Source: a virus | Direction: 5' to 3' (one strand) | Virus record (IMG/VR): IMGVR_UViG_3300025849_000009 | DNA length: 64,000 nt | Shown here: piece after piece, positions 8,572 to 63,617 of the stretch | How the letters are laid out: each line of letters opens with the position of its first letter | Position numbering within the stretch: the stretch's first letter is position 1 | The notes under the pieces: generated by a model | The model's input: the letters and a program-made list of their open reading frames with translations, nothing else | Told to the model about the DNA's origin: nothing | The model's database searches: none | Program-made: the position numbers and the translations under genes

Positions 8572-10080
8572 TTATATATCTCCTTCAAAATCTACATTTT
8601 TTACATCATATTTAAATTTCTGTTCCTTGTAGATCCTTTGCCTTTCTTTGGAGTGTCTTATTAGGTAATTATCCCAATCAGGGGAACTTAAATCATCTAC
8701 AAAATCTATAATATTAACCGAGTCTTTAGAGCTATGTTGCCTTAAACCCCTACCAATAGATTGTCTAATAATTACTTCTGATTTAAATGATTCTGTGAAG
8801 AATATGTTGTGAATTTTTTTGATGGATATACCAGTTGAGAATGTACCATATGAAGCGACAATGACGACTTGGTTTCCAGCTTCCATTTTCTTTTTGTGTT
8901 CTTCTCTAATATCTTTATCAATTCCACCATCAACATAATAAACGGATTTATCACTCTCCTGTCTGAGCTTTTCATATATTTTTTTGCCATGTTCAATTCT
9001 ATGAAAAAGAACTAAACTATTACCCTTAACCCTAGATATAATACTTGTTATAAAATTAAGCCTTCCAGGTGAATTGATCACATAGTTTTGCTCAAATTTA
9101 AAAACGTCTTTACTTTCATATCTATTCTGAGACATTTCTCTAAATGCGTCTTTTGTAGATTGAGGTGCATAGTCCATTTTAATTACCTTTACTTTACACC
9201 CTGCGATGTGTCCTTCGTTTTGTAAATAATGTGCACTTATTTCTGTAATTAATGGACCAGTATATGCCATTAACGTTAATCTATCTAACGTGCCTTCTTT
9301 TGGAATAGTTCCAGATAAACCATATTTATAATCTGCATTAATACATTTTTGTAAAATAGTTTTAATAGAGGCTGATTTTGCTTTGTGTGTTTCATCAACA
9401 ATTACTGCATCAAATTCTTCAAAATATGCTTTATCTTTTTTAACAAGTGATTGATATGTCCCAATAATGACATTTCTACCTGCCCTTAATTTTTGACCAC
9501 TATATATTTGTTGTACTTTAATATCTATTGCGTTTCTATAATTATAGTCTAAAAAATCTTCACTAGCCTGTACAACTAATGATACATTAGGTACAATAAA
9601 TAAGATCTTTTTTGCTTTTTGTTGTTCTAGTAAATATGATACTGTTAAGAATGATATTAGTGTTTTACCTGCAGAAGTTGCAAGCTCACTTAAACATCTT
9701 CTAAATTTTAGTATATTAAATGCTGCCTCTATTTGATAATCTCTTGGAGTTATCTCTGACTTTTCGAAAAAGTCTAAAGCCCATTTTGTAAATTTTTCTT
9801 GATTAATATTGGTATCAAACATGTCAGTAATACCATTGAGTTTAAACTCAAATTTATATTCTTTACATATTTGCATGACTTCTCTCCATAATCCTGAAGG
9901 AATCCATTTATCGTCTTTTATATATGAAACATATCCATCCCATAAACCCTTTTTAACCAAAGGATTAAATCGCCATGAATCAATTCTTCTATTTAAAGAA
10001 ATATTGAGTTGTTCCAGTTCTAATTCAGTTGCTTCATCAATACGTAGCAGCTGTTTGTTTTCAGTTAAACTAAGCTCCAC
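8572..10080 (-). CDS. uvsW: UvsW-like SF2 DNA helicase
   Basis: PRDYQ Q-motif, LATSAGKT Walker A, VDETH Walker B, GLSGT, FSTGISIK, QSIGRGLR; GTG start. Confidence 0.92.
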   Translation of the reverse strand: MELSLTENKQLLRIDEATELELEQLNISLNRRIDSWRFNPLVKKGLWDGYVSYIKDDKWIPSGLWREVMQICKEYKFEFKLNGITDMFDTNINQEKFTKWALDFFEKSEITPRDYQIEAAFNILKFRRCLSELATSAGKTLISFLTVSYLLEQQKAKKILFIVPNVSLVVQASEDFLDYNYRNAIDIKVQQIYSGQKLRAGRNVIIGTYQSLVKKDKAYFEEFDAVIVDETHKAKSASIKTILQKCINADYKYGLSGTIPKEGTLDRLTLMAYTGPLITEISAHYLQNEGHIAGCKVKVIKMDYAPQSTKDAFREMSQNRYESKDVFKFEQNYVINSPGRLNFITSIISRVKGNSLVLFHRIEHGKKIYEKLRQESDKSVYYVDGGIDKDIREEHKKKMEAGNQVVIVASYGTFSTGISIKKIHNIFFTESFKSEVIIRQSIGRGLRQHSSKDSVNIIDFVDDLSSPDWDNYLIRHSKERQRIYKEQKFKYDVKNVDFEGDI

Positions 10081-14150: not shown

Positions 14151-14154
14151 GTAT

Positions 14155-14162
14155 TATATATC
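14155..14162 (-). promoter_or_regulatory. Late-promoter motif GATATATA, 4 nt upstream of ATG
   Basis: Minus strand GATATATAATAC-ATG; motif recurs before many structural genes. Confidence 0.7.
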
Positions 14163-17624: not shown

Positions 17625-19184
17625 TTAGTATATGCCTTCGTCTCCAAATTCGTCGTCGCCGGTCCCTTCAGAATCTTTTTCAAGATCTTCAACATTGTGT
17701 ACAACTATACCATTTGCAAAGTATAAATCACATTCTTCAACATTGAACGAATAGGTTGTAAATCTTTCAGGAACTGTTACCAGTTCTATAGATGTAATAT
17801 CTACCCATATATTGTCTTCGTTTAACAGCCAATCTGAATTAACAATATCTCTCACTTGTTTAAAGTAAATATCGCCTACCATGTCTTTTACTAGAACTGG
17901 ATGCTCTTCTGTTATTTTTAATAATCCATTATTAAAGTTGTAATATTTATCAAAATCCAAGACATTGATGCCTGTAACGACAGTGCTTGTATATTCAGGT
18001 TCTAGAGTTTCTTCTCTTCTTTTCCATTCTTGCCATTCTCCGTCCAAACTAAATCCATCGAAGTTAATAGATAATAGGTCATCCCCTATAACTATATTCT
18101 CTACCGCTTTAGTTTCTCCATTGGCTAATGTAAGTAATTCTCCAGCTACGTGACATCCGCCACCGCCACCGCCACCAAAGCCGCCGCCACATAATGCAGG
18201 GCTATCGTATGTACAGTCAAATGGTGTTTGTGAATCACCTATATACTGAGTACCAGTAAATTCGTAAATTGTTCCGGATTGGTTAGGGCAATTAGTAGTT
18301 CCAGCAATCTTGTTTGATAGAATATTAACACTTCTTAAAATTTTAGCTGTACCTCCATCACATGGCGTAGCTGATCTAAAATAAAAAGTTTGTGATGTTG
18401 CAGATGGAACTGGTGTCGGCATCGCAGTTGGAGCTGGCCCTGAGCCACTTCCACTTCCACTAGTTGGAGATGGAGCCGGAGTTGGGGTTCTATTGCTTCC
18501 CGAATTAGCTTCGAGTACACAGTACCATGTGTCGGATGTGCCATAAGGTGCATTTACAGTACAGTCAACATTCATATTACTTACAGGTGAAAAAGTTTTA
18601 GTAAACCTATACGTTCCACTAAATACATTAGAGTCTTGTGTTACAGTTGGACCAGATAAGTTTGTTCCACTAACACCCGTAGTACTAAAATTACTAGGTG
18701 CCGCTGGACTAGTCTGACCATCAGCTACAATTGTATATGCTACATCAGCACCAAGTGACTGAGGTGTAAATACAAATCTATTACCAGATGTTGTATTAGT
18801 TGCGAACGTGAACGCTGGGGTTGGACCTAACGTTGGTTGTGCTGTTGGAACTGGGGTTGGTTGTGCTGTTGGAACTGGGGTTGGTTGTGCTGTTGGAACT
18901 GGCGTTGCAGTCGGAACCGAAGTTGGGACTGGCGTTGCAGTCGGATCAGGTACACCCGCACCTTCAGCTTGATTTACAGTAATAGTGTCAACCGTTGTTG
19001 AATTAGCATGTCTAACAGTGAGTGTTGCGCTTCGCGCAGCACCGTTGTTTTGTTCTAGTGTAATTGTCCAGTCGTCAGAGTTAACAGAAACTCTTGTTAT
19101 AGTAATCCAATTAGGAGTAGCATCCCATGAATAGGATGTACTTACTGGTGTAATTGAGACAGTTCTTGTATAATCGTAGCTCAT
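17625..19184 (-). CDS. Putative fibre/adhesin: BACON-like domain, PT repeats, C-terminal Hint (intein-like) domain
   Basis: PNWITI...QNNGAARSATLTV...ITVNQ (BACON-like); (PTAQPTPV)n; poly-Gly then CHVAGELLTLANG...YFANGIVVHN. Confidence 0.75.
   Translation of the reverse strand: MSYDYTRTVSITPVSTSYSWDATPNWITITRVSVNSDDWTITLEQNNGAARSATLTVRHANSTTVDTITVNQAEGAGVPDPTATPVPTSVPTATPVPTAQPTPVPTAQPTPVPTAQPTLGPTPAFTFATNTTSGNRFVFTPQSLGADVAYTIVADGQTSPAAPSNFSTTGVSGTNLSGPTVTQDSNVFSGTYRFTKTFSPVSNMNVDCTVNAPYGTSDTWYCVLEANSGSNRTPTPAPSPTSGSGSGSGPAPTAMPTPVPSATSQTFYFRSATPCDGGTAKILRSVNILSNKIAGTTNCPNQSGTIYEFTGTQYIGDSQTPFDCTYDSPALCGGGFGGGGGGGCHVAGELLTLANGETKAVENIVIGDDLLSINFDGFSLDGEWQEWKRREETLEPEYTSTVVTGINVLDFDKYYNFNNGLLKITEEHPVLVKDMVGDIYFKQVRDIVNSDWLLNEDNIWVDITSIELVTVPERFTTYSFNVEECDLYFANGIVVHNVEDLEKDSEGTGDDEFGDEGIY
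17694..18155 (-). other. Hint/BIL autoprocessing domain (154 aa, no homing endonuclease)
   Basis: Block A Cys1 (CHVAG), block B ITEEHPV, block F YSFNVE, block G VVHN. Confidence 0.85.
18832..18953 (-). repeat. 24-nt tandem repeats encoding PTAQPTPV/PTATPV
   Basis: gttggttgtgctgttggaactggg repeated. Confidence 0.9.
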
Positions 19185-19202
19185 TGTTTTGTTTATTTTT
19201 TA

Positions 19203-19210
19203 TATATATC
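19203..19210 (-). promoter_or_regulatory. Late-promoter motif GATATATA
   Basis: Intergenic, 18 nt upstream of the ATG at 19184. Confidence 0.65.
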
Positions 19211-19231
19211 TTACTTATCGTGTTTGTACTT

Positions 19232-20623
19232 TTAATAGTTTAAAAATCCTGTTCCAGTTCCTGAACTAGTTCCTCCACTTCCACCTGATTGAGATGGTGT
19301 TGGTTGTGCTGTTGGAATTGGACCATCACCTGTTCCTGAACCTGTTCCCGAACCTGTTCCGCTAGTCGGGACAGGTGTTGGTTGTGCTGTTGGAATTGGA
19401 CCATCACCTGTTCCTGAACCTGTTCCCGAACCTGTTCCGCTAGTCGGGACAGGTGTTGGTTGTGCTGTTGGAATTGGACCTGAACCACTTCCACTTCCAC
19501 TAGTTGGAACTGGTGTTGGCTGTGCCGTTGGAACTGGCGTTGGTTGTGCTGTTGGACTTGGACCTGAACCACTTCCACTTCCACTAGTTGGAACTGGGGT
19601 TGGTTGTGCTGTTGGAACTGGGGTTGCAGTCGGATCAGGTACATTTGAATTTGGTGACCCGTCACTGTTTGCATCAATGTCTCCACCTCCAATAGAAATG
19701 GTGTCAGTTATTACTGGACTTCCATCAGCATATGCATTAATGTCTCCGCCTATAATTCCAATACTATCTGCTACTCCGCTACCACAATCTGTACATAATT
19801 CTCTCCATTCCGGTGAACCACCATTATAATAATAAGCTTCAGCAATATCTAAATCACTATTAAATCTTATCATACCTACTTGTGGATTTACTGGTCTTTG
19901 TCCAGTTCCACCATAAGGCAATCTTACATAACCTTTAAATTCGGCATTTATATCTACATCTAATATACCACTACCTGAAGCTTCTAAACTAAGGTTGTTT
20001 GATCCAGTCGTTTTAATTGCTACACCTTCACCTTGAAAATATGCATTAGAACTAGTAGCAACCAAAGATATTTTATTGGTAGTTGCACCAAACTCTATAT
20101 TATTACTACCAAAATTATTTTTAAAAGCAAATCTTTTATAAGCTCCGCTTTCTTCACTAGTTAATACTAAACCATGAATTGAGTCATGAAACAATTTTAG
20201 ATAATTTGCAAAAACACTATCAGTTGCTATTGTCAATCTTGCATTTGATGAAACATCGCCGTCATTAGAATCTTCTTCAAATGTAGAATCTCCTAGCCAA
20301 ATTATAGGAAGTTGTAAATCAGTTCCTCTTTTAGGTTTTAGAATAGTAACCTCATTTTGTCCATCTGAATTAGCATCTAATTCAACTTTGTACCATGGAC
20401 TATCAGTTGCTCCTGAATCTCCTTTTAGACCAGTATTACCAATCTCACCTTTTTCACCTTTTTGTCCTGTAGAACCAACTTGACCTTGATCTCCTTTTTG
20501 CCCTTTAGGACCAACAGGTCCACCTCCGTTTGCCAATATCTGGTCAAAGTTATAGTTGATTTTTTCAAACTTAATAGAGTCTGAATCACTCGGGTGTAGT
20601 ATCTCTTGAATGTTAATTGCCAT
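19232..20623 (-). CDS. Collagen-like tail fibre protein with PT/GS low-complexity tail
   Basis: N-terminal KINYNF motif, 13 G-X-Y triplets, RLPYGGTGQRP...GMIRFNSD fibre motif, C-terminal PTAQPTPV/GTGS repeats. Confidence 0.75.
   Translation of the reverse strand: MAINIQEILHPSDSDSIKFEKINYNFDQILANGGGPVGPKGQKGDQGQVGSTGQKGEKGEIGNTGLKGDSGATDSPWYKVELDANSDGQNEVTILKPKRGTDLQLPIIWLGDSTFEEDSNDGDVSSNARLTIATDSVFANYLKLFHDSIHGLVLTSEESGAYKRFAFKNNFGSNNIEFGATTNKISLVATSSNAYFQGEGVAIKTTGSNNLSLEASGSGILDVDINAEFKGYVRLPYGGTGQRPVNPQVGMIRFNSDLDIAEAYYYNGGSPEWRELCTDCGSGVADSIGIIGGDINAYADGSPVITDTISIGGGDIDANSDGSPNSNVPDPTATPVPTAQPTPVPTSGSGSGSGPSPTAQPTPVPTAQPTPVPTSGSGSGSGPIPTAQPTPVPTSGTGSGTGSGTGDGPIPTAQPTPVPTSGTGSGTGSGTGDGPIPTAQPTPSQSGGSGGTSSGTGTGFLNY
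19250..19642 (-). repeat. Nested tandem repeats (PTAQPTPVPT / SGTGSGTGSGTGDG / SGSGSGSG)
   Basis: Includes an exact duplication with 78-nt period near 19295-19480. Confidence 0.9.
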
Positions 20624-37744: not shown

Positions 37745-38028
37745 TATTTGGTTTTCTTTGTGTTTTCGTCAACGGTATAATTTTTAAAATTATTTAAATA
37801 TCTTGCGCCTTTTAATAAATTCTTTAATGCGTCATCTAAGAATATTAAAAAATGTTGCATGGTTTGATTTCTTTGAATGTGACCAGACAAAGATCTGCTA
37901 ATAAATTCCCCTGGAGCTAACTCATCATTGTAGTTAAATCCCGTATGTAATCTATCATCCTTTCTAGATTTAACAGAATCGTATCTTCTACGTTGTCTAT
38001 AGTTAAATAAATTTGTAAATAAACCCAT
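37744..38028 (-). CDS. Small hypothetical protein in baseplate operon
   Basis: 94 aa; TAATG-coupled to both neighbours. Confidence 0.65.
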   Translation of the reverse strand: MGLFTNLFNYRQRRRYDSVKSRKDDRLHTGFNYNDELAPGEFISRSLSGHIQRNQTMQHFLIFLDDALKNLLKGARYLNNFKNYTVDENTKKTK

Positions 38029-39857
38029 TATTTAAGTGCCTTTCTATTTCCAGCTTGTACTCTAGTGTATATTGTTCTAGGTACAGGATCTGCTTCAAAG
38101 TTTATACTTACCGCAGCTTCAGCGTTAATTAATACATCGTCTTCCATGACGTCACCGTCTCTATCTAACCATCCGCCTCTAAAAACAGCAACTTCTTCTT
38201 TTTCCATTATAATATCACCCCATTGATCTAATCCTTTTACCTTAGGAGGAATAATAGTATTTTCATCAACTGGAACCACTTTTACATCCTCTATTTTCTT
38301 AAAGAAAACATGTTTTTGTTTTCCATTTCCTACAGTTTCCAATGTTACTGGTTCTTGTGGAACTACTGTAGTAGTAATTGATTCATAATAACCAAGTCTT
38401 CTTGCAGTCTCTTCCGTCTCTGAAATAAATCTAACATTCACAGCGTCAATACCTGCAACCTCTTCTAAGATATAAATAATATCAGACTTAGGCAGTTTAT
38501 CTCTTCTCGTTATATTTAGTAAGTATGTAGACATTCTCTCTCTTACCGCTGTGTAAATCTCATCCTTAGTATAGCCTTCAAAGAATCTAATATTAATATC
38601 AATACTATATTTTCTTATTTGCGGCCTAACAAAAACAACTTCAGTTGTTACCATTTGTTGACCACTATCTTCTAAAACCTTATGCATTGCATCATACTCA
38701 CCTTGATCAAAGAACATTTCTTCTTGTGGTACAGTAAAGTAATCTTGATTTTTAGCTAACTTCTTATTAACATCTGGCACTGCAAATATATAAATAACAT
38801 TATCGTCATCTAAATATTGATCGTCAGTTGTGTTATATGCATCTATATAAGAGAACATATTGTATCTTGACAGAAAGTATTCATAGTTATCGGGTGTAGC
38901 TAATACAAATGATTTACTTGCAAGCGGTGTCATTATTTTTGTAAATTGAGTATTCTCTCTATCGCTACCCATTTTTGGAGATGATGTAACAGTTACATCT
39001 AAAAATTCATTTAAATCATGTTCTGTTCCATTAGAATCATAACCAGTTGCATCCCACTTAATAGTTAAATCAGGTGAATCATCTAAATTACCAGCAATTC
39101 CAGAATGTTTTACATATTCTACTTTAATACTAGCACCATTAGGTGGCACCATTCCAAAACTTCCATTTCCAAAATAAAGATCCAAACCTCCACTAATACC
39201 TGTTTTAATTAAATACGCCTTCTCATCAGATAACAGATCATAAAGTGATTCATGTTTTGTCCACTGTTCACCATTAACACTTACGGTAACTTTACTGTGA
39301 TCAGTGATTCCACCAGTATTAATGTTAAATGATTGTAATTTTTCACCGTTAGAAGTCACGGTTTGTGATTCAAATTTACCTTGAATTATTGCACTTTTAA
39401 ATGCGTTATAATTTGTTTTTTCTAATTTAAATAATTCAACAGAATTTAATAAAGTATATGTCATTCCGTTAGCATCAAATTTAATTTCTGATCTACCATT
39501 AATATTTAATAAACTTCCTGCTATTTTTGCCATATCAGCACCGGGCTTCCATCTAAATATAATTTCACCAGTAGAAGCAAACCCTCTTGTCGCATCATGG
39601 CCTGTCAATCGTGACATACCATATATTGATTCCGGTTGTTGTGCAGTATATATGTTTTGCTCTACTACAGAATCTTCAATATAATACATAATAAGATCCA
39701 TCATTTCTGATAGTACACTTATTATCTGTGCAAACGGTGAAGCTAAAGTAAACAAAGTGTTAGCCCTATTGTATACCCTAGAAATATAAGTTCTAGCATC
39801 AGCCTTAATAGACTCTGCTCCCGTTCTAATTGTACTTAAAAATTTTAATTCTGCCAT
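38028..39857 (-). CDS. gp6: Baseplate wedge protein (T4 gp6/baseplate J-like)
   Basis: NIYTAQQPESIYGMSRLTG, LYFGNGSFGMVPPNG, GSDRE, LATPDNYE. Confidence 0.82.
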   Translation of the reverse strand: MAELKFLSTIRTGAESIKADARTYISRVYNRANTLFTLASPFAQIISVLSEMMDLIMYYIEDSVVEQNIYTAQQPESIYGMSRLTGHDATRGFASTGEIIFRWKPGADMAKIAGSLLNINGRSEIKFDANGMTYTLLNSVELFKLEKTNYNAFKSAIIQGKFESQTVTSNGEKLQSFNINTGGITDHSKVTVSVNGEQWTKHESLYDLLSDEKAYLIKTGISGGLDLYFGNGSFGMVPPNGASIKVEYVKHSGIAGNLDDSPDLTIKWDATGYDSNGTEHDLNEFLDVTVTSSPKMGSDRENTQFTKIMTPLASKSFVLATPDNYEYFLSRYNMFSYIDAYNTTDDQYLDDDNVIYIFAVPDVNKKLAKNQDYFTVPQEEMFFDQGEYDAMHKVLEDSGQQMVTTEVVFVRPQIRKYSIDINIRFFEGYTKDEIYTAVRERMSTYLLNITRRDKLPKSDIIYILEEVAGIDAVNVRFISETEETARRLGYYESITTTVVPQEPVTLETVGNGKQKHVFFKKIEDVKVVPVDENTIIPPKVKGLDQWGDIIMEKEEVAVFRGGWLDRDGDVMEDDVLINAEAAVSINFEADPVPRTIYTRVQAGNRKALK

Positions 39858-39874
39858 TATTTATGTATACTTTT

Positions 39875-40231
39875 TTATAGCATGCTTATTTTTATAGCAT
39901 ATCTACTATCTATCGTAATATCTATGAACGCAATATCTCTAACCTCGCCTTGAACAAAGTCAATGTTTACTTGAACATTGTATTTTGATGCTAATGGGCA
40001 ATATGCATTAATCTGATCTACTATCACCGATTTGATATTATGTTCACTAGAATTGAAATCATATATAAGTGTTTCTAAATCACATCCAAACTTATGATCC
40101 CCCATAACTTCACCGCTATTAGTAAATAAAATTGTTTGAATCTGTGTGATCAACATTTCTATTTCACCATTAGTCTGAACTTGATCTTCGTCGTAATTAG
40201 GATCGCTAGGATATTTTATATATAATTCCAT
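39875..40231 (-). CDS. gp25: Baseplate wedge/sheath initiator (T4 gp25-like)
   Basis: ILFTNSGEVMGDHKFGCDLETLIYD. Confidence 0.85.
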   Translation of the reverse strand: MELYIKYPSDPNYDEDQVQTNGEIEMLITQIQTILFTNSGEVMGDHKFGCDLETLIYDFNSSEHNIKSVIVDQINAYCPLASKYNVQVNIDFVQGEVRDIAFIDITIDSRYAIKISML

Positions 40232-40253: not shown

Positions 40254-41096
40254 TTATGAATGCATCATCCAATCAACACCTTCGTCTCCTTGAATCTCTT
40301 CGTTAATCTCCGATAACTCATCATCGCCCATACTTTTAATAGCATCATAATCAAAATCAACATTACCAGGAAGGGCAAATTTAAAAATTGCTAATTTAGA
40401 ACCAATAGATTGTTTTATTTTTGCACTCACATATCTAAAGAATATTTCATCTGAATATAGTGCACAATCAGGGATAGTTTCATATATTTCTAAAATAACA
40501 TCGCCCTTTGGTGTATCACCCATAAATTTTAATTCTCCAGTTAAACTAGAATAATGAAATGAAATAGGGTTTTCAAGTATTTGTCTAGATAAATCTGCCA
40601 TAGAAGCGTTCAATACGTAATATTGTAGCTCTTCTGCGGCTTCAGCCATACCTGAACCTTCATACATTCCTCTAAATAGCATTCGCTCCATTGAAAAGTC
40701 AGAGCCTCCTTGGAATCTCACATCCATTCCGCCTCCGCCTCCATTCCAACCCGAAGCTAAGTCATATAAACCATATACTGAATATACACCTCCACCTCCA
40801 TCTGCACTTGGCCCAGGCAATGTAAGTGCTCTGTGACTTTTAAAGTGTGATGTACTAAATACACTATTAGGGATGTGGTATAAATTTTCTTTTACAGAAT
40901 ATTCATATTTTTTATAAAACCATTTTTTAGCTCTTTTGATTATATTAATAATCTCTTTTTGTGGCAAATTAATAGGTACCATACATGCTCCAGTAATATC
41001 ATCTCCTATTTCTTCTAAAAATGTATTTAGACAATTTGGATCGAAATTTCTACCAGAGGTTAAATCTTGGTTTGAACCGCTTCTAATTTCACTCAT
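40254..41096 (-). CDS. gp13: Neck protein (T4 gp13-like head-tail adaptor)
   Basis: FFRYVSAKIKQSIGSKLAIFKFALPGNVDFDYDAI..G..EL resembles the gp13 C-terminus. Confidence 0.7.
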   Translation of the reverse strand: MSEIRSGSNQDLTSGRNFDPNCLNTFLEEIGDDITGACMVPINLPQKEIINIIKRAKKWFYKKYEYSVKENLYHIPNSVFSTSHFKSHRALTLPGPSADGGGGVYSVYGLYDLASGWNGGGGGMDVRFQGGSDFSMERMLFRGMYEGSGMAEAAEELQYYVLNASMADLSRQILENPISFHYSSLTGELKFMGDTPKGDVILEIYETIPDCALYSDEIFFRYVSAKIKQSIGSKLAIFKFALPGNVDFDYDAIKSMGDDELSEINEEIQGDEGVDWMMHS

Positions 41097-41097
41097 T

Positions 41098-42408
41098 TTA
41101 TTCTCTTATTTTTTTACTTACAACAATCTCAGTATCTTCAAATCTAGCATCTTTTGTTTTGAAACCCTCTCTGAATATACCTCCAACCATTTTACCTTTA
41201 AACATAGTATCTCTACCTGCAACATAACAGTTTATTAATTCACAACTACCATGTGTGTAGCTAGATTCTACCTTTGATTCTTTTACTTTAGTGCCTTTAT
41301 ATAAACTACCATACATGATAGCAGATCCAGTTATTTCACACCCATAAAAACTAGAATTAGTTACATTTCCAGCTATTTCACAATCTATAAATTCAAAATC
41401 TTCTAGTTGATAAACAGTTGGAAACTTTCCATCTTTTATTTGTGTGGCCCCATAATTAGAATCATAATTAATTAAGCCGGCAGTCATAGATCCATTTACT
41501 ATAAGATCTACTACTCTATTCTTAAACCTCTCCCATTGCAATTTAATAATAACTGGGTTATCCACTAGATCCACCAATATAGTTATGTCGGGATAATATT
41601 CAGATACCTTAGAGTAATCCTTTAGTATATCTGAGATAGGTTTATTTTTATTTAAAATTCTCTGTAATTCTATTTTATTCTCATCATTAAATCTAGAGTC
41701 ATTACATGAATTCCACATTTGCATTAAAAATCTTTCAGTTAGATAAAGAATATCATCTGACTTTTTCTCATAGTCAGTTCCACCAATATATCTAAATTCT
41801 AAGTAATTCTTTTCTTTTTTGGAAAAATTAATTCCGTAATATTTTGTATCAGCAAATTTAAAATTGTTTGATGCTATATGATTACCATCAAAATGAAATG
41901 CTTCAATTTTCGGCATTACCCATTTTACGCTCTTTGCATATGTAGAATTTTCACGTTCAGGGAAAAACTTATAGATTTGTTTCTCATCAAATTCTAAAAT
42001 AAACTTAAGAACATTCATTTTAGAAATAAGATCTTTGTCTTCGAGATACTTTTTATCGAAAGACAAATTTATATGAATTGATGCTCTATCATTAGTATAT
42101 CCATTTTCAGATATCCATTTTAACATCTTAATAACCACTAATCTGGCATTTCTATATGGGATAGGTCCCGTAACCAACTCTGCCAATCCTTTACCACCAG
42201 ACATGTCAGGTTCAATTTTAAATTCTTCAGCAGATGGTTGAAAATCAGAATGTGCTTTATCTTCTAATCTAATCTTTCGATCTAGAAGTTTTTCCAGAGA
42301 CTTTCTGGTTACTTCTAGATCGAGGTTAGAATAGAACTCAAACTCAACACCCATGAGTGCTGAGTTTAGGATTGATTCTCTCGGAGAATCTATAGTTAAT
42401 TTTTGCAT
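41098..42408 (-). CDS. Putative amidoligase (COOH-NH2 ligase, Amidoligase_2-like) with C-terminal beta-helix-like repeats
   Basis: GVEFEF, EPDMS, ELVTGP, SIHINLS, KYYGIN, YLEFR. Confidence 0.75.
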   Translation of the reverse strand: MQKLTIDSPRESILNSALMGVEFEFYSNLDLEVTRKSLEKLLDRKIRLEDKAHSDFQPSAEEFKIEPDMSGGKGLAELVTGPIPYRNARLVVIKMLKWISENGYTNDRASIHINLSFDKKYLEDKDLISKMNVLKFILEFDEKQIYKFFPERENSTYAKSVKWVMPKIEAFHFDGNHIASNNFKFADTKYYGINFSKKEKNYLEFRYIGGTDYEKKSDDILYLTERFLMQMWNSCNDSRFNDENKIELQRILNKNKPISDILKDYSKVSEYYPDITILVDLVDNPVIIKLQWERFKNRVVDLIVNGSMTAGLINYDSNYGATQIKDGKFPTVYQLEDFEFIDCEIAGNVTNSSFYGCEITGSAIMYGSLYKGTKVKESKVESSYTHGSCELINCYVAGRDTMFKGKMVGGIFREGFKTKDARFEDTEIVVSKKIRE

Positions 42409-42435: not shown

Positions 42436-42443
42436 TATATATC
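42436..42443 (-). promoter_or_regulatory. Late-promoter motif GATATATA
   Basis: Intergenic, upstream of the amidoligase. Confidence 0.65.
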
Positions 42444-42461: not shown

Positions 42462-43748
42462 TTATTGTGGCATCTTTAAAAAGACTTTCATCGAATCAAC
42501 ATCAATTCTTGTAATCTGTACCGTAATAGGGTCGCCAGATTTAAAAACACTCATTACTTCTTCACTTAATTCACTAACATGTAGTAAACCAGTCACACCC
42601 TCTTCTATTGTGATAAATAATCCGTAATCCTTTTTAGTTTTAACGGTAGCTTCTATCACAGAAGGAATGTTATATCTAGAAGTAATATCTACCCATGGAT
42701 TAACAACTATATTTGCTTTTTGAGTTAATGTTATTTTAGTATTACTTATAATGTCTTTGACCATAAATGAAATTTCATCACCTGGCTTAATTTCTCTGGC
42801 CCTAAACTTAGTTAACGTGTCTTCGTCCAAATCATTATTATGAATCATACCAGTCAAACATTTATTAAATTCTACGAATACTCCATATTTTGCAGTACCT
42901 GTGACATTTCCAGTCACTGTTTCACCTTGTGTTTGTTTTAATTTTTCAATTTCTCCAGGTATTAAAGCTTGTAAATATTTTCTATGAGAAACTACTAACG
43001 TGCCTCTATCTGGTGAGAAACTAACAGGAACTACATACATTTCAGTTCCAATAATAGAACCAAAGTCATGTAGTTTATTAATTCCAGCTAAAGATCCTGG
43101 CATAAAACATTCTATACCTTGGACCATTACCATATAACCTCCATTTTCAATCATATTTGTAACTGTACCAACCCAAGCTGTGTTTCCTTCTTCAACTGCA
43201 GCTCTAAGATCCATAAACACTTTGTGTTTAACACCACCATTGATACTACCAACAACATGTGAGTTTTTACCCAACTGTGTAATTAGCACAGCTGTTTCAT
43301 CACCTGGTTTTAGCGATTGAATTTCGGCAGGTTCTTTATCATACTTAACGTAGATCAATTCTCTATAACCAATATCAATACTAATAAACTCAGAATTAAT
43401 GGCATAAATTTTACCTTCATGAATTTCTCCAGGATTAATTACAGTTAGTAATTGTCCTATGCTATTGTCATGTGCAGTAAGCATGTCATACATTTCTTGT
43501 GCATAAGTTTCTCTAGAGAATACTTTGTCACCGTTCTGTGTTTTGATATGTGGATTTGGTTTTCTTGTTCTTGACGGGCAAGTAGATTCATATGCATCCC
43601 ACATGAATTCCCCGTTCTCATCATAAAATGCTTGATTAGCATCTTCTTCTACTTCTTTGTTTTCGATTTTTACATCTAGTTCTTCAACTACGGTCTCTTT
43701 TGGTGTCTTTTCCCCAATTCTGATCCTTTTGTTTTTTTCGTTGTTCAT
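42462..43748 (-). CDS. rpsA: Phage-encoded ribosomal protein S1 (bS1) homologue, four S1 domains
   Basis: GEIHEGKI..IDIG; GGYMVMVQGIECFMPGS..LVVSHR; GETVTGNV..YGVFVEF..GMIH; YGLFITIEEGVTGLLHVSEL..FKSGD. Confidence 0.85.
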   Translation of the reverse strand: MNNEKNKRIRIGEKTPKETVVEELDVKIENKEVEEDANQAFYDENGEFMWDAYESTCPSRTRKPNPHIKTQNGDKVFSRETYAQEMYDMLTAHDNSIGQLLTVINPGEIHEGKIYAINSEFISIDIGYRELIYVKYDKEPAEIQSLKPGDETAVLITQLGKNSHVVGSINGGVKHKVFMDLRAAVEEGNTAWVGTVTNMIENGGYMVMVQGIECFMPGSLAGINKLHDFGSIIGTEMYVVPVSFSPDRGTLVVSHRKYLQALIPGEIEKLKQTQGETVTGNVTGTAKYGVFVEFNKCLTGMIHNNDLDEDTLTKFRAREIKPGDEISFMVKDIISNTKITLTQKANIVVNPWVDITSRYNIPSVIEATVKTKKDYGLFITIEEGVTGLLHVSELSEEVMSVFKSGDPITVQITRIDVDSMKVFLKMPQ

Positions 43749-43776
43749 TTATTTTTATATTAAAGGTGTAACATAA

Positions 43777-43784
43777 TATATATC
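43777..43784 (-). promoter_or_regulatory. Late-promoter motif GATATATA
   Basis: Intergenic, upstream of the S1 gene. Confidence 0.65.
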
Positions 43785-45596: not shown

Positions 45597-46313
45597 TTAT
45601 TTATTCTTTTGTTGATACTTAATATGTGAACTTGATAATTTACCAACCGTAGCTGGTGTCGGTGGCATTGGAGGTCCAGTAGGTCCAACTCCGGTTGGGT
45701 GTATATGTGCATTATAGTCATCTAACCATGTTTGTAACCAATCTTGTAAAGATTGACCCCTTACTGCTGGTTCTGTCTCATCTGCACCAGGTTCACCTTC
45801 ATTTGAAACAAATATATCACCACAATCTAAAAACATTTTTGCGTCTGTACTTATCTTAATAAAACCTTCCTCGTCGATTTGTATCATAGGTCTTTCTTTA
45901 GCGCCACTTCCTCGAGTAATAACTAAACCATCTTCGGGTGAATGATATATTCTAACATTTCTTTCCGCGTCATACACTAAACTAATTACATCGTGTGGTG
46001 CATCAGAAGCTTCTAAAACATCTGTCTTTAAATCAGTGTTTTGATCTATTTGAAACCAATACTCTGGATGATATATGTTACCATTATCAAATCTAACTGC
46101 AACAATATCTCCAACTCTCGGAACAGCATGTGCCCCAACCTGATCTCTATTCATAGGAGTTGCCCATGGAATAGCGTCATCCGTTAGTTTATCAAATTTA
46201 CCATAAACTTTTACACGACACCTACCATTAAGTAAAGGATCTTCGTTTACTACAACTTCTCCTAACCAATGAGTTTCTCTTAGATTATCTTCAACTAATT
46301 CTTTATTATTCAT
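45597..46313 (-). CDS. gp5: Baseplate central spike (gp5/gpV N-terminal OB fold)
   Basis: GEVVVNEDPLLNGRCRVKVYG, IPWATP, VPRVGDIVAVRF; C-terminal HIHPTGVGPTGPP metal-binding apex. Confidence 0.85.
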   Translation of the reverse strand: MNNKELVEDNLRETHWLGEVVVNEDPLLNGRCRVKVYGKFDKLTDDAIPWATPMNRDQVGAHAVPRVGDIVAVRFDNGNIYHPEYWFQIDQNTDLKTDVLEASDAPHDVISLVYDAERNVRIYHSPEDGLVITRGSGAKERPMIQIDEEGFIKISTDAKMFLDCGDIFVSNEGEPGADETEPAVRGQSLQDWLQTWLDDYNAHIHPTGVGPTGPPMPPTPATVGKLSSSHIKYQQKNK

Positions 46314-58127: not shown

Positions 58128-58162
58128 ATAAAAAGGGTCCATGTATTATACATGAACCCTTT
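58128..58162 (-). terminator. Intrinsic terminator overlapping a promoter -10
   Basis: Minus strand AAAGGGTTCATGTA-TAA-TACATGGACCCTTTTT; 14-bp stem with one G.U, then U tract. Confidence 0.75.
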
Positions 58163-58189: not shown

Positions 58190-58696
58190 TTATTTTGCTT
58201 CGTACATTTCTTTAAGCTCATCAATCTTTTTATTGTAAGCTTCTTTGATACCGTTTAGACATGCTTCGTACATTTCTTTAGTAAGTCCTTCTCCATGTAT
58301 CTCAGCGTTCGCATCTTCTGCTGACTGAGCAACTAATGTTGCAGCTAATGCTGCGTTTTCTTTAAGGTAAGACTCAACTGTGTGGTCAGGATAGTCATCT
58401 CCTTCATAGTCACATGCTTCTTTGACAGCACACTCATATGCTTCTGTCATCATTTCTGAAACTGCCTTTACAACCTCTTCCTCTTTTTCAACTTCTTCAG
58501 CCTCTTCAACGTCTTCAGTTTCTTCTTCAGTTTCAGTTTCTTCTTCAGTTTCTTTTTCGTCTTCGCCCTCTTTTTCTACTTCGATTTCATAATCTCCGTC
58601 TACTTTAATTTCGATTTCGTCTTCAGCTAACTTATCTGTATCCGCTAGATTTTTATTAGCAGCATACTCTTCGAATGATAATATTTTTTTGTCCAT
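58190..58696 (-). CDS. Highly acidic protein, putative prohead core/internal protein
   Basis: MDKKILSFEEY start; Glu-rich ETEEETETEEETE; late motif at 58716-58723. Confidence 0.6.
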   Translation of the reverse strand: MDKKILSFEEYAANKNLADTDKLAEDEIEIKVDGDYEIEVEKEGEDEKETEEETETEEETEDVEEAEEVEKEEEVVKAVSEMMTEAYECAVKEACDYEGDDYPDHTVESYLKENAALAATLVAQSAEDANAEIHGEGLTKEMYEACLNGIKEAYNKKIDELKEMYEAK

Positions 58697-58731
58697 GTTA
58701 TGTTGTTATTTTTATTATATATCTTAGTATA

Positions 58732-59214
58732 TTATAGTGTTTCTATTTTATTGTTTTTCATCCAAGTTGATAATTCACTTTCTGCTCTATCAAAAAGTCT
58801 ATTTCTGTTAATACTTAATCCAAAATTATTAAAGTATTCTTTCATTAAATAGTATGCAGGTTCTACTGATTCTCCATTAGCAACCATATCACTCACATGT
58901 TTTGAAACTTCATATGCATAATACGCGGCTTTTTCTGCCATAGGGTTTGTCATTGCATTATAAAAATCTCCACCGTAAAATTTACCTACAGTTTCTCCAA
59001 ACTTTTGTTTCATTTCTATCCATGAAATCCCTTCTAATCCAATCCATAATTTAGCTTGGACCGCCTTAGTGTCTTTTCTAATAAAACCTTCTTTTGCCAT
59101 ACCCTTAGTTATCTCTAGGATTTTCTTAGGAATTGGTAATTTGCCATTATCTTTTTCCCATGCTTTGATTTCTTTATCATTTACAAATGATTCAAATAAT
59201 TTTATGTATTTCAT
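58732..59214 (-). CDS. Hypothetical protein with capsid-targeting-like N-terminus
   Basis: MKYIKLFESFVND. Confidence 0.65.
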   Translation of the reverse strand: MKYIKLFESFVNDKEIKAWEKDNGKLPIPKKILEITKGMAKEGFIRKDTKAVQAKLWIGLEGISWIEMKQKFGETVGKFYGGDFYNAMTNPMAEKAAYYAYEVSKHVSDMVANGESVEPAYYLMKEYFNNFGLSINRNRLFDRAESELSTWMKNNKIETL

Positions 59215-59220
59215 ATCGAT

Positions 59221-59907
59221 TTATGCCTTAGACCTTTTTTTTACTGTTTTGAGTTTCGCCTTTAGGGCTAATTGGTTTTTTTGAACAGCTATTTTCATGC
59301 CATCAACAGAAGTTTGTTGCATTTTTGATTTTAATAATGCAGTTTCTATTTTATCAGCAGGTTCTTTTGATTTATCTTTAGATTTTTTATTTATCAGTTC
59401 AACAAAATCTTTGTTCTTCTTAGATAAACCTTTTTGTTTTTTAGTAAGATCTTTTATTTTTTGTTTATCGCTTTTTGGTTTACTCTTCTTTTTCTCTAGA
59501 ATAAATTTATCTAAAGATAAAACGTTAACCATTTCTTCAACTTTACCCATCTTTTTTGATAGTTCCATTGCCCAATCAACTCCTTCGTCTCCGCCCCATA
59601 TTAACCAAGAAACATAACCTTTATCTTTCCATGGAGTTTCTTTTAATTCGGGCTTAATAGATGAATTTTTTCTATGTCTATTAAATGAAGCCATACGCTT
59701 TACTGTATCACCAGATATGTTTTCACCTTTAGCTAATTGATGTGCTCTTGCCCAACCAACTGCAGTTCCAGCATCCACTTCTTCACGACCATGTTTTTCT
59801 TTCCAATCGATAGCCATTTGAGCATTTTTCTTTGCTGCTTCTGGATAATCGTTGTAAGTATCATCATCTCTGACTTCAGATTCTAAAAACAATTTAATAT
59901 ACTTCAT
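59221..59907 (-). CDS. Conserved-looking phage protein with capsid-targeting-like N-terminus and Lys-rich tail
   Basis: MKYIKLFLESE; YNDYP...GTAVGWARAHQLA...TVKRMASF..RH...GYVSWLIWGG; second motif VLSLDKFILE before the basic tail. Confidence 0.65.
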   Translation of the reverse strand: MKYIKLFLESEVRDDDTYNDYPEAAKKNAQMAIDWKEKHGREEVDAGTAVGWARAHQLAKGENISGDTVKRMASFNRHRKNSSIKPELKETPWKDKGYVSWLIWGGDEGVDWAMELSKKMGKVEEMVNVLSLDKFILEKKKSKPKSDKQKIKDLTKKQKGLSKKNKDFVELINKKSKDKSKEPADKIETALLKSKMQQTSVDGMKIAVQKNQLALKAKLKTVKKRSKA

Positions 59908-59910
59908 GTA

Positions 59911-62439
59911 TTATATATTGTTATTTCTATGTGATTGATCAAAGTGATTCTGTTCCTTTAGCTCTTTATCATGTCCTTCGTCTCTAACTTCTTTAGCAAC
60001 ATCTTTGTCAGCATCTCCCCAAGTTCCTTTACCTTTTGTTAAAAATGCATTTACTCGAGCGTATCCCCATTGTTGTTCAGTTGCACCCGGCCTATGACCA
60101 GTTTTCCATGCCGCCATTCCTCTTCTCATAATAATTCTAATAATTCCAATTGGTACACCGGTTTCTTCTGATTTTGTCTTAAGTGCTTTTTCAATTTTAG
60201 GATCACTGATTGGACCTCTATCACCTTCAACCTTTTCTAAAATATCACATTCTGCTAATTCTTCTTGAGCAAACTCATTATATTCTTTAGCCCACGCTTT
60301 CCATTTAGATGGTCTAGCATAATCAGATAAAATCATATCGATAGCATCTGGTTGAGAAATCTGAGAATTAATATCATTCCATACTTTATCTGCTAACCAT
60401 CTACCAGCTTTTGCGTTTAAATAAGATAGGGCTCCAGCGTCTGAGAATTTCCAACTCTTAGTTAGTATTCCCCACACATCGTTCCATATTTCTTCAATCT
60501 CATAAGAGTCCATATGAACATCTAAAGTTCCCCAAAATCCATACATTTGATTGATGTCATCTGTATTATATTGTAACTTTTTGCCGAATTTAAAATTAGG
60601 CACTCTACTTTCTGTAATTAAATCTTCATTTAATGTTTTTAATAAAGAATTAAAAAATCTAGGTGATAAAGACTCTACGAATCCTCTTTCTTCAGCATCG
60701 TTCTGTATCCACTCTTTGTCTTTAGAAGAAAGCTTTTCATAATCTTTATTAAATCTATGATGCGATATTAAATCATAGATATCTTCTAAATTATAATTAC
60801 CTTCATTGGCCTTTCTCATGTCGATCCAAACTCTAATAATATCTGCATAATCTTTGGCAGTTAATTTAGTTTTATTTCCATGAGTTGTTCTATCATTAAG
60901 ATCGAACATCTGCTTAGCAAACTTATCGATATTACCTGATTTAAAATATAACGTAGCTCTTTGTCTTCCATTATCTAATAATTCAAAAGTTTCTTCTTTT
61001 TCATCATGTGGATCTAATCTCCAACCAGCTGAATGATTAACTCTAATATCTAAACCACTAGAATTACTATCAACAACTACAGTCCAATGACCAGAAGACT
61101 GATATGTTTTTCCTTTAGCATACTTGATTTTCTCTTCGTTAACTAATGATTCATATACTAAATATCCATTAGATCTAGCAAAAACATTAGACTCATCGTT
61201 CCACTGTTCTTTAGTACTACTTATTGAAATTTGTATATAATTCTTTGCACCTAAATCTGGCTGTATAAGAAAAACTAAATCATCACTACCAACATAAAGA
61301 TCCCAATTTCTACCTGATTTTTGAGTTAGTAATAATTGAAAATTAGAATCTAATTCCTTTTTAAGTTCTCTTGTATTTGGAAAGCTTCCACGACCCGTAG
61401 AAAAACCATCTCTGTATTCTAGTTCATCTCCAAAAGAAAGTTGATCTACGAATTTTTGTAATCTTTCTTCTTCATCATTCTCAAAATAAAACTCATTAAC
61501 TACTGATTCAACACTAGTTGCTTCATTGGCAGATTCTAAAATAATAGAATTTAGTCTTACTTCTTTTTGAAATCTACCACTACGTACATCGTCAGTTACT
61601 TCTAACTTAACACCATACATTGCTGTTAATTTTACTTTTACTTTTTTACCATTATGTTCCGCTTCAAATTCTTTAAATGCATTTGCTTGTCGACCATAAT
61701 CTGTAATTTCATATTCTCCATCTTCTGTATCAAATATAGTACCTATGCTAAGTTTCCTAAGAATCTTTGCACCCATCATTGATATTTTAGAAGAAGATAT
61801 GGTTTTTCTTTCAGTAACTAATGATTCTAATATCTTTGAATTTTTATCTATTGAAAAAATAGTTTCTTTTTTTCTTATAATAGAAATTCCCTTGAATGTC
61901 GATTTGTTAAAATATTTGTTACTTCTGTTCTCATATCTTTTTAATGAAGAGTGATCTGCAAACACACCGCCTGGAATGTTGTATATGATAGTTCCCTTTG
62001 GTAACACTATATTTGTATAATTGCCAATTTGAACACCTTCAACATCTTTTTTTAATTCATATTTTCTATTATCTAAATTATATGTACCTCCACTCATAGT
62101 GCCTGAGTTTGGTCTAAATGTTGCTTCATCTAGCGACTCGTCTTTTTTATCACCATATAATTCATGATATTTCTTTACATGTTTAGATGTTTTAACTTCA
62201 CCCTTTTCTCTAGCTTCCTTATCACCTGGCATTTCTTTATATGCGCTGGAATCATCGTCAGCCATGTCTGATTGTTTTTTTATCTGATCTTTTTTATCTT
62301 CAATCTCATTATCGTCTAACCCTCTATGATATGGTTTTGGACCTGGTTTTGCTTCTGACAAATAATATGCGGTATACTCTTCTCTTGTCATGTTTAGTTT
62401 TGCAGCTTGCACTCCTAGGAAATCGTTAAAATTGCTCAT
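59911..62439 (-). CDS. Modular polyprotein-like internal head protein with DUF5824-like terminal domains
   Basis: Likely start MSNFNDFL at 62439; linkers ESLDE, ESLVTE, ESVVNE, ESLVNE, LNEDLITE; C-terminal RRGMAAWKTGHRPGATEQQWGYARVNAF. Confidence 0.65.
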   Translation of the reverse strand: MSNFNDFLGVQAAKLNMTREEYTAYYLSEAKPGPKPYHRGLDDNEIEDKKDQIKKQSDMADDDSSAYKEMPGDKEAREKGEVKTSKHVKKYHELYGDKKDESLDEATFRPNSGTMSGGTYNLDNRKYELKKDVEGVQIGNYTNIVLPKGTIIYNIPGGVFADHSSLKRYENRSNKYFNKSTFKGISIIRKKETIFSIDKNSKILESLVTERKTISSSKISMMGAKILRKLSIGTIFDTEDGEYEITDYGRQANAFKEFEAEHNGKKVKVKLTAMYGVKLEVTDDVRSGRFQKEVRLNSIILESANEATSVESVVNEFYFENDEEERLQKFVDQLSFGDELEYRDGFSTGRGSFPNTRELKKELDSNFQLLLTQKSGRNWDLYVGSDDLVFLIQPDLGAKNYIQISISSTKEQWNDESNVFARSNGYLVYESLVNEEKIKYAKGKTYQSSGHWTVVVDSNSSGLDIRVNHSAGWRLDPHDEKEETFELLDNGRQRATLYFKSGNIDKFAKQMFDLNDRTTHGNKTKLTAKDYADIIRVWIDMRKANEGNYNLEDIYDLISHHRFNKDYEKLSSKDKEWIQNDAEERGFVESLSPRFFNSLLKTLNEDLITESRVPNFKFGKKLQYNTDDINQMYGFWGTLDVHMDSYEIEEIWNDVWGILTKSWKFSDAGALSYLNAKAGRWLADKVWNDINSQISQPDAIDMILSDYARPSKWKAWAKEYNEFAQEELAECDILEKVEGDRGPISDPKIEKALKTKSEETGVPIGIIRIIMRRGMAAWKTGHRPGATEQQWGYARVNAFLTKGKGTWGDADKDVAKEVRDEGHDKELKEQNHFDQSHRNNNI

Positions 62440-62449
62440 GTTGTTTTTA

Positions 62450-62905
62450 TTATTTTGGTAATCTAACCATAGTATCTTTAGTTTGGCTCTTATCCGTATT
62501 CTTGACAAAATCAAAGTTTTTATAAAACTTATTTAATCTAGAAATAGAAGTTGCTCCAAAATCTTTAGAAGGTGTTAGATATATTTTTAAATTTTGTGTG
62601 TCAGCATAGTCAGTAATTCTTGACATAACCTTAGAACCGATCCCTTTATCACGATCCTCTTTTTTTACTTTTATTTTACTAAGTTGTAGGTACTTACCAT
62701 TATCATATAAATCTAATTCTATATTGAATTGATCTTCTAATTCTTGTAAGATGAATTGTTCTCCTAAAATAGGTGTATTATCATGATTACATTTATGACA
62801 AATAAACACATCGTGTCCACCCTCTTCTATTTCCCAAGACCAACCACAGTTATCACAAGATACTTTGTTTGCCGTAAACTCCTCGAATAGTTTTATATAT
62901 TTCAT
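62450..62905 (-). CDS. Zn-ribbon plus GNAT acetyltransferase, capsid-targeting-like N-terminus
   Basis: MKYIKLFEEF; CDNC...CHKC; acetyl-CoA motif RDKGIGS; FYKNFDF. Confidence 0.8.
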   Translation of the reverse strand: MKYIKLFEEFTANKVSCDNCGWSWEIEEGGHDVFICHKCNHDNTPILGEQFILQELEDQFNIELDLYDNGKYLQLSKIKVKKEDRDKGIGSKVMSRITDYADTQNLKIYLTPSKDFGATSISRLNKFYKNFDFVKNTDKSQTKDTMVRLPK

Positions 62906-62906
62906 A

Positions 62907-63605
62907 TTAAAATTTCGGTATACCTCCTATTTTTGCTGCTCTTCGTCTCCAGAGATCTAATACTTGTTCTCTTTCTTCGTCATTAATAACACCTTGTTCC
63001 TGTTGTGTATCTAAATATCTACCAACAGTATCGCTCATGTTTTCCTTTCTCTTCTTAGCTTCATATCTTAATCCTTGTAAATTAGCATCCACTTCTTTAG
63101 GTAGCATTAGATACTGAGATTTTGGTAAAAGTCCCATTTTTATATAGGCTCTTAGTTCACTATCATCTTCATTAGGTTTACCTTTTCTATAATTTCCGGT
63201 GTCAATTCCGTCTTGTGTAATATGTTCCATTTCATGACGAACTACATCTGCTAAATGAAAATATACCATTGACCATTCTCCTGGAATCCACTCAGGATTT
63301 AAAGCAAAGTCTATAATAATATAAGGTGTTTGAAAGTCACCGTGATCATCATCGTCTCTACCATCTGCACCTGTTGAATCTAATACTTGAAATCCTTCAT
63401 ATTTTTTATCAATATGAATAGTAGCCTCAATATCAAATTCTAAACCTCTCTCTTCAATTTGGTCTCCATAATTTATAGTAGCGTTCCCGCCTTTATATGA
63501 TTTAACCCATTTATTGAATATAGCTTTAGTTAATTTGGAAGCTAATCCATCATATGCAGATCTTCCTTCACCAATAAAACTTTCATATGTTCTAATATGT
63601 TTCAT
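62907..63605 (-). CDS. Putative zincin metallopeptidase, capsid-targeting-like N-terminus
   Basis: MKHIRTYESFIGE; HEMEH plus downstream EVDA third-ligand motif. Confidence 0.7.
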   Translation of the reverse strand: MKHIRTYESFIGEGRSAYDGLASKLTKAIFNKWVKSYKGGNATINYGDQIEERGLEFDIEATIHIDKKYEGFQVLDSTGADGRDDDDHGDFQTPYIIIDFALNPEWIPGEWSMVYFHLADVVRHEMEHITQDGIDTGNYRKGKPNEDDSELRAYIKMGLLPKSQYLMLPKEVDANLQGLRYEAKKRKENMSDTVGRYLDTQQEQGVINDEEREQVLDLWRRRAAKIGGIPKF

Positions 63606-63609
63606 GTAT

Positions 63610-63617
63610 TATATATC
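63610..63617 (-). promoter_or_regulatory. Late-promoter motif GATATATA, 4 nt upstream of ATG
   Basis: GATATATAATAC-ATG, identical to the 14150 site. Confidence 0.7.

Follow-up and report, generated by a model that had tools for sequence, protein, structure and literature searches.

A four-domain homologue of ribosomal protein bS1 in the baseplate and neck gene block of an uncultured phage

The viral DNA stretch of 64,000 nucleotides from IMG/VR record IMGVR_UViG_3300025849_000009, called the window here, encodes at positions 42462 to 43748 a protein that is, judged by alignment, a collinear homologue of domains 1 to 4 (d1-d4) of the bacterial ribosomal protein bS1. The comparisons identify the gene as a bS1 homologue rather than a generic S1-domain protein, and its product carries, near the N-terminus, a signature of Bacteroidota bS1. 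The window has a G+C content of about 32% with all 46 main genes on the minus strand, and its source is a large uncultured marine phage, probably with hosts among the Bacteroidota. The reading that we prefer, to which we give a probability of about 0.55, is that late in infection the phage S1 binds host 30S subunits, using the uS2 site, and helps to initiate translation on phage leaders that are A-rich and lack a Shine-Dalgarno (SD) sequence.

Homology to bS1 and the N-terminal region

The gene and the parts of its product are located in the window as follows.

42462-43748, minus strand: coding sequence of the phage bS1 homologue, ATG start, 428 amino acids (aa), stop codon at 42462-42464
43614-43748, minus strand: residues 1-45, disordered charged extension (from predicted local distance difference test values, pLDDT, and composition)
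43584-43613, minus strand: residues 46-55, GEFMWDAYES, Bacteroidota bS1 N-terminal signature (from a motif scan), with a short helix predicted at 50-56
43458-43526, minus strand: residues 75-97, helix preceding d1 (KVFSRETYAQEMYDML...), predicted as helical at 83-97, at the position of the uS2-anchoring N-terminal helix of E. coli
43188-43439, minus strand: residues 104-187, domain 1, degenerate OB fold (from alignment to E. coli S1)
42939-43181, minus strand: residues 190-270, domain 2 (FMPGSLAGINK, VVSHRKYL), among the most conserved parts of the family
42714-42929, minus strand: residues 274-345, domain 3, canonical RNA-binding S1 domain (YGVFVEF...GMIH)
42465-42671, minus strand: residues 360-428, domain 4, canonical RNA-binding S1 domain (DYGLFITIEEGVTGLLHVSEL)

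The comparison to solved structures, with 6bu8_Z and 6h4n_y as the best matches, places phage residues 104-425 on residues 18-345 of E. coli S1, corresponding to d1-d4, in one collinear alignment (about 1e-39), and the domain 4 core DYGLFITIEEGVTGLLHVSEL is a near-match to the corresponding E. coli sequence. In NCBIfam, models of 30S ribosomal protein S1 take all the top places; NF004952 (6e-49) aligns residues 75-427 to positions 22-374 of its 580-position profile. The Pfam S1 domain (1.5e-22) is found in two stretches, the best one at residues 363-424, and recognises only the last two domains, being blind to the first two because d1 and d2 of bS1 are degenerate. No family for the protein was found in PHROGs. 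The AlphaFold2 model, built from 103 family sequences, has a mean pLDDT of 79.9 and folds into four beta-barrels, with disorder at residues 1-36 (pLDDT under 50) and short helices at 50-56 and 83-97. The top Foldseek matches in the PDB are all ribosome-bound bS1, with the best match being 9gut_B (1.6e-27), followed by 9guv, 9gux, and 6h4n, and with d1-d2 of 9guq_B superposing at a TM score of 0.70. The S1-domain proteins RNase R, PNPase, and NusA come far behind, at about 1e-5.

A first-pass annotation of the sequence had proposed four S1 repeats, and these are borne out by the collinearity with E. coli S1, the coverage of NF004952, and the four predicted barrels. It had also named a closer similarity to non-ribosomal S1 proteins as an outcome that would speak against its proposal, which is not what we find, with bS1 ranking ahead of RNase R, PNPase, and NusA. 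The six-domain organisation of Gram-negative and Bacteroidota bS1 is absent; the protein stops after d4, and the next open reading frame (ORF) downstream has no S1 domain. The same d1-d4 content is known from rpsA delta-56, the E. coli S1 without d5-d6 (Duval et al. 2013, PMC3858243), whose product binds the 30S subunit, melts structured mRNAs, and supports growth, but this is a gammaproteobacterial laboratory truncation, whereas the phage S1 is a natural and long-diverged form. In E. coli S1, d1-d2 are needed for 30S binding, and d1-d3 form the minimal docking and mRNA-unfolding unit (PMC3858243).

With the Bacteroidota bS1 proteins of about 590-650 aa, the phage S1 shares the collinear d1-d4, with degenerate d1-d2 and canonical d3-d4, the FxWxxYE signature, and the helix before d1, as well as, with bS1 more generally, an Asp and a basic residue in the d1 loop, at the places where E. 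coli S1 touches uS2. It differs from bS1 in having four domains instead of six, in being 25-31% identical to the long bacterial S1 representatives, and in having a longer linker between signature and d1 and an extra basic motif at the N-terminus. Against the 16 Bacteroidota references of our tree it scores 105-140 bits (equivalog cut-off, 524). A location within virion genes and a separate, long-branched phage clade, both described below, further set it apart.

The N-terminal extension shows the charged character described in the first-pass annotation, with 8 K/R and 13 D/E in residues 1-45, of which residues 1-36 are predicted to be disordered. Its basic start, NEKNKRIRIG, is conserved in the marine family (KNKRxRI kept) and absent from bacterial bS1, and the rest of the extension is variable. 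The two sequence features on which the annotation had based a resemblance to Bacteroidota bS1, EFMWDAYE and LVVSHR, are located at residues 47-54 and 251-256. A scan for DNA encoding [DE]F[DN]W[DE]A[FY]E, run on one genome for each of 185,579 species of prokaryotes, found at least 120 loci. The 120 matches listed comprise 115 from Bacteroidota (Bacteroidia, 94; Flavobacteriia, 12; Cytophagia, 6; unclassified, 3), nearly all with the motif near the start of an S1 ORF of 590-770 aa, and five from other phyla, where it lies deep within unrelated ORFs. The FxWxxYE-type N-terminal motif is a phylum signature of Bacteroidota bS1, and with 115 Bacteroidota loci among the 120 listed the scan supports the proposed resemblance; the phage EFMWDAYE departs from the scanned signature in having Met in place of D/N. 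The PDB contains the structure of a 591-aa Bacteroidia-type bS1, 9zcd_A, which we reached through locus L014:2076-3869:-. It matches the Bacteroides intestinalis S1 with 825 bits, begins with ANFNWHNFQEG, and may reveal the contacts of the FxW motif.

The helix before d1 is conserved across the whole phage family with the consensus KVYSxExYAQELYD, in which Tyr82 and Tyr87 are kept. It aligns with SFAQLFEESL of E. coli and ELxKTYDESL of Bacteroidota, with an uncertain residue register in the MAFFT alignment. Phe5 and Phe9 of E. coli S1 stack on Phe32 of uS2 and are essential for ribosome binding, and Asp39 and Lys43 of d1 add salt bridges to uS2 (PMC4288201). A residue-by-residue mapping of Phe5 and Phe9 onto the phage helix was dropped, the MAFFT register being untrustworthy. 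Asp125 and Arg129 of the phage d1 align to the uS2 contacts Asp39 and Lys43, and the surrounding DIGYRE is conserved in the marine family.

A different use of the same domains would be off the ribosome, as an RNA-binding protein or RNA chaperone whose four OB domains shield late phage transcripts from host RNases or, in a variant of this idea, as the cofactor of a phage RNA enzyme, in either case without stable docking on ribosomes. The canonical RNA-binding domains d3-d4 would suit such a role, and Al-Shayeb et al. left a role "on or off the ribosome" open (PMC7162821). Host S1 serves T4 RegB and Q-beta replicase in this way. Phages are known to put S1 to work away from the ribosome (PMC13157829), and d1-d2 dock S1 on the Q-beta replicase through the same residues as on the ribosome (PMC4288201). 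We nevertheless regard this explanation as unlikely, since the retention of a Bacteroidota-specific motif, of the helix before d1, and of degenerate d1-d2 domains is hard to explain without a ribosomal partner, and no RegB-like or replicase gene was found adjacent to S1.

Relatives, phylogeny, and selection

A word-indexed search yielded 1,782 relatives of the phage S1. The best 120 of these are 366-447 aa long (nearly all 424-439), are 63-100% identical to the window protein, and were recovered from marine metagenomes (Tara, JGI, ENA), where their contigs measure up to 256 kb. The longest contigs, with 248-256 kb, suggest a marine lineage of about 250 kb, compared with 460-735 kb for the huge phages. 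When 1.84 billion representatives were searched exhaustively without a profile, 6,776 matches resulted, in which the marine family is followed by about 60 short proteins (340-460 aa) with 33-46% identity, whereas the long bacterial S1 proteins reach only 25-31%.

Among GenBank phages, tblastn matches are found in the huge phages LR756500-LR756504 and LR745206 (32-40%) and in the Prevotella Lak phages (30%), and there is no DNA-level match of the S1 region to any cultured phage. The putative rpS1 proteins of the huge phages (LR756500-LR756504, LR745206) and of Lak (MK2500xx) belong to the same four-domain clade, being 30-36% identical to the window S1 and carrying a KVFSxExYAQELYD helix; the 369-aa S1 of Lak-C1 has FNWTPYE and KVFSHESYAQELYD. 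Three distant short members lie in phage-like contexts: P0144 shows the order hub, S1, 433-aa protein, and gp13, as in the window, P0143 adjoins an Amidase_2 gene, and P0209 adjoins genes for a PIF1 helicase and DHFR. Members of the Lak-like clade have their S1 gene located among replication genes. The cultured jumbo cyanophage PhiMa05 also encodes a bS1, which groups with Vampirovibrio proteins (PMC13157829). It is not among the tblastn matches to the window S1, it sits with five other ribosomal protein genes, and it represents a case of different origin and host phylum.

For the S1 tree we used the d1-d4 columns only, leaving out the N-terminal motif (103 rows, 336 columns; IQ-TREE quick search, LG+C20), and included long S1 proteins from 16 Bacteroidota, E. 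coli, one alphaproteobacterium, one member of the Bacillota, and one of the Chloroflexota. A branch of length about 1.75, with 100% support in the Shimodaira-Hasegawa-like approximate likelihood ratio test (SH-aLRT), separates 53 short proteins from the remainder. These 53 comprise the marine proteins, with the window S1 among them, those of Lak (Lak-C1) and huge phages (LR756500, LR745206), and, with a single exception, the unnamed short proteins; on the other side are all long bacterial S1 proteins and one unnamed protein of 389 aa (P0241). The 16 Bacteroidota bS1 proteins form a clade of their own with 100% support. Left unconstrained, the quick search placed the phage clade at the base of all bacterial S1, whereas a tree constrained to unite it with Bacteroidota bS1 is 53 log-likelihood units better (p = 0.97 in the approximately unbiased test). 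The free quick search was therefore suboptimal, and the branching among bacterial phyla in its tree should not be read closely.

The phylogeny against bacterial S1, named as a check in the first-pass annotation, thus yields a separate phage-only clade, while the grouping with Bacteroidota is compatible with the unrooted tree and stays unproven. The alignment allows, and mildly favours, a placement of the phage clade as sister to Bacteroidota bS1, and an origin from within Bacteroidota bS1 appears likely, although the missing root and the long phage branch keep it short of proof.

The phage S1 is under purifying selection. Compared with three orthologues, its overall ratio of nonsynonymous to synonymous substitution rates (dN/dS) comes to 0.06, 0.16, and 0.16; the OB domains span 0.04-0.20, and the N-terminal extension reaches up to 0.9 in one pair. 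Across the whole short S1 family, d2 and d3 are the most conserved domains.

Virion gene block, promoter-like motif, and leaders

The neighbouring genes and the upstream elements of S1 are the following.

45597-46313, minus strand: baseplate hub (Phage_base_V / gp5-like), upstream anchor of the conserved order
43777-43784, minus strand: promoter-like motif GATATATA, 36 nt upstream of the S1 ATG
43749-43776, minus strand: A-rich leader without SD, holding CACCTTTAA at 43760-43768
41098-42408, minus strand: p436 (436 aa), candidate amidoligase, with its own GATATATA at 42436-42443
40254-41096, minus strand: T4 gp13-like neck protein, downstream anchor of the conserved order
39875-40231: gp25-like protein
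38028-39857: Baseplate_J/gp6-like wedge protein

The local order is hub, 599-aa protein, S1, p436, gp13-like, gp25-like, and gp6/Baseplate_J-like wedge, and the baseplate and neck setting given in the first-pass annotation is therefore correct, with the hub, gp13-like, gp25-like, and Baseplate_J/gp6-like genes flanking S1. The gene order around S1 is unchanged in the close marine relatives. The order hub, S1, p436, gp13 persists down to 36% S1 identity, as seen in the 462-kb huge phage LR756500, which shares it with the window phage and has p630, p475, hub, S1, p436, and gp13-like. The p436 gene always directly follows S1, in the window and in L002-L007, L141, and LR756500. No Pfam or PHROG match was found for p436; its nearest ESM Atlas clusters are viral and carry Amidoligase_2 on 17-29% of their members, a language-model lead only, by which p436 is possibly an amidoligase. 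The baseplate wedge protein is nearest to those of huge phages and Lak phages (Prevotella), followed by the Tenacibaculum phage pT24.

This fixed position brings up a further explanation, in which S1 is packaged in the virion or attached near the baseplate or neck, is delivered with the DNA, and captures the host 30S subunit at once. The hub-neck position predates the split of the marine phages of about 250 kb from the 462-kb huge phage (36% S1 identity), the gene has the promoter motif of the structural module, and the conserved basic KNKRIRIG motif has no counterpart in bacterial bS1. Several observations make such cargo very improbable in our view: the S1 N-terminus is unlike the MKxIxxFEE-type leaders of the neighbouring candidate cargo proteins, the ETVVEE match to an ESVVTE-type linker is shared by no more than 4 of 89 family N-termini, and the S1 gene of the Lak-like clade lies among replication genes. 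A related and equally long shot is that S1 and the amidoligase-like gene form a two-gene unit of the virion module, from which a virion-delivered or amidoligase-modified S1 would seize the Bacteroidota 30S at infection. If this were true, the phage would inject a ribosomal protein, going beyond a late-expressed spare part.

Two candidate features of the S1 N-terminus were rejected. A prohead-protease site in the extension (ETVVEE, compared with ESVVTE/ESLVTE linkers) was dropped because of its presence in only 4 of 89 distinct family N-termini, and no resemblance to an MKxIxxFEE-type cargo leader was found. Elsewhere in the window, the proteins at 6430-8538 and 59911-62514 (minus strand) have three ES[LV]V[TN]E copies each (ESVVTE three times in one; ESLVTE, ESVVNE, and ESLVNE in the other), which look like repeated linkers or processing sites; apart from the one unconserved ETVVEE in S1, the motif is found in no other window protein. 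The region 58190-63605 (minus strand) encodes small proteins with near-identical leaders (MKYIKLFE three times, MDKKILSFEEY, and MKHIRTYESF), resembling a shared targeting sequence, and S1 has no such leader.

The GATATATA motif before S1, reported in the first-pass annotation, is present at its place 36 nt from the start codon. The window has 13 copies of it, all of them on the coding strand and 9 of them no more than 50 nt upstream of a gene start. From the genes downstream of these copies we infer a late promoter. The motif is kept upstream of S1 in the relatives L001-L007, L141, and L143, and it is retained before S1 genes whose products are 96%, 80%, 66%, and 38% identical to the window S1. 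Scans for terminators and sigma-70 promoters around S1 gave nothing above chance that bears on the gene.

The S1 leader contains a second conserved element, ACC(Y)TTTAA, located 14-21 nt before the ATG and followed by an A-rich run, and both are kept in lineages with only 38-66% S1 identity. It is also found upstream of S1 in L002 (about 9975-9985), L005, and L141, and no element of this type was seen before other genes of the window. The element is in the same sense as part of the 3' tail of the 16S rRNA (CACCUCCUUU). It could be an autoregulatory site.

More generally, the window leaders are A-rich and SD-less, as the first-pass annotation had described: a weak SD-like 4-mer at -15 to -5 precedes just 2 of the 46 genes, and A makes up 55% of the 20 nt at the end of the leaders, versus 38% for the strand overall. 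Such leaders fit a Bacteroidota host. Ribosomes of Bacteroidota do not use SD pairing (PMC7797042), and initiation in this phylum is believed to depend on the binding of bS1 to the leaders (PMC3155529, PMC7797042).

Four genes have TATAATAC directly before the ATG (14151-14162, 58143-58153, 59908-59918, and 63606-63617, minus strand), two of them with the full GATATATAATAC. If the motif is a -10-type promoter, the late mRNAs of these genes would have little or no leader. In E. coli, S1 is not known to be needed for leaderless mRNAs. This combination is one of two points in favour of a dominant-negative S1, which would fill the uS2 site, displace the full-length host bS1, and lower host translation as a form of shut-off, with phage leaders, including the apparently leaderless ones, still initiating; the other point is the absence of d5-d6. 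We consider such a blocker improbable, because E. coli S1 without these domains supports growth (PMC3858243), so that truncation alone does not make one, because expression together with the late structural genes would be late for shut-off, and because the RNA-binding residues of d3-d4 are under strong purifying selection.

The base composition of the window departs from its usual 28-35% G+C in an island of 43% at 18001-20000, which overlaps the 3' part of the ORF at 17625-19184 and the ORF at 19232-20623.

Proposed role of the phage S1

In the preferred reading, the gene belongs to an old S1 lineage that is restricted to phages and carried by large Bacteroidota myoviruses. The phage S1 would be made together with the structural genes and would dock on the uS2 site of the host 30S subunit through FMWDAYE, the YAQEMYDML helix, and domains 1-2. 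Domains 3-4 would capture and unfold the A-rich, SD-less phage mRNA leaders, by which initiation could be sustained or raised at the peak of virion-protein demand. Given that the d5-d6 deletion is viable in E. coli (PMC3858243), a naturally occurring d1-d4 protein whose N-terminus is of the host type should function as an S1. Ribosome binding, timing, and preference for phage over host mRNAs are the parts of this model that we infer, and the sequence does not distinguish a factor that biases initiation from a simple extra supply of S1. The further proposals of the first-pass annotation, a replacement of host S1, a bias toward phage leaders, or a shut-off of host translation, are possible roles beyond what the sequence shows.

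Several points weigh against this interpretation. A virion gene block is an unusual place for a translation factor. The scores for NF004952 (166.8 bits) and TIGR00717 (147 bits) are below the curated equivalog cut-offs of 524 and 577, the former far below, which is partly due to the absence of d5-d6. In the helix before d1, the spacing of Tyr82 and Tyr87 is i/i+5 and that of Phe5 and Phe9 in E. coli i/i+4, in a part of the alignment that is unreliable. The Bacteroidia ribosome structure of PMC7797042, which might have shown a role of FxWxxYE, does not resolve bS1 and uS2. Finally, nothing in the sequence predicts selectivity for phage leaders.

Phage S1 genes as such are already known, and the window S1 adds detail. 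A 2013 report already described genes for S1 and S21 in viromes free of contamination and called for genomic context (PMC3877843), and Mizuno et al. (2019) set S1 aside because of its ambiguous domain (PMC6375957). For huge phages, a possible rpS1 was described by Al-Shayeb et al. (2020), who linked it with SD-poor genomes and proposed substitution for host proteins, noting that a true rpS1 is hard to confirm (PMC7162821). Beyond that report, which could not separate true rpS1 from generic S1-domain proteins, the present analysis shows true d1-d4 homology, an N-terminal signature of the host phylum, and a single old clade, confined to phages, whose genes hold a fixed position among the virion genes.

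The choice of start sites in Bacteroidota being thought to depend on bS1, a phage bS1 would be the most direct handle of a phage on host initiation. The marine S1 family is abundant and well sampled, and with Flavobacteriia as hosts it would be a good test case for the action of phage ribosomal proteins on ribosomes.

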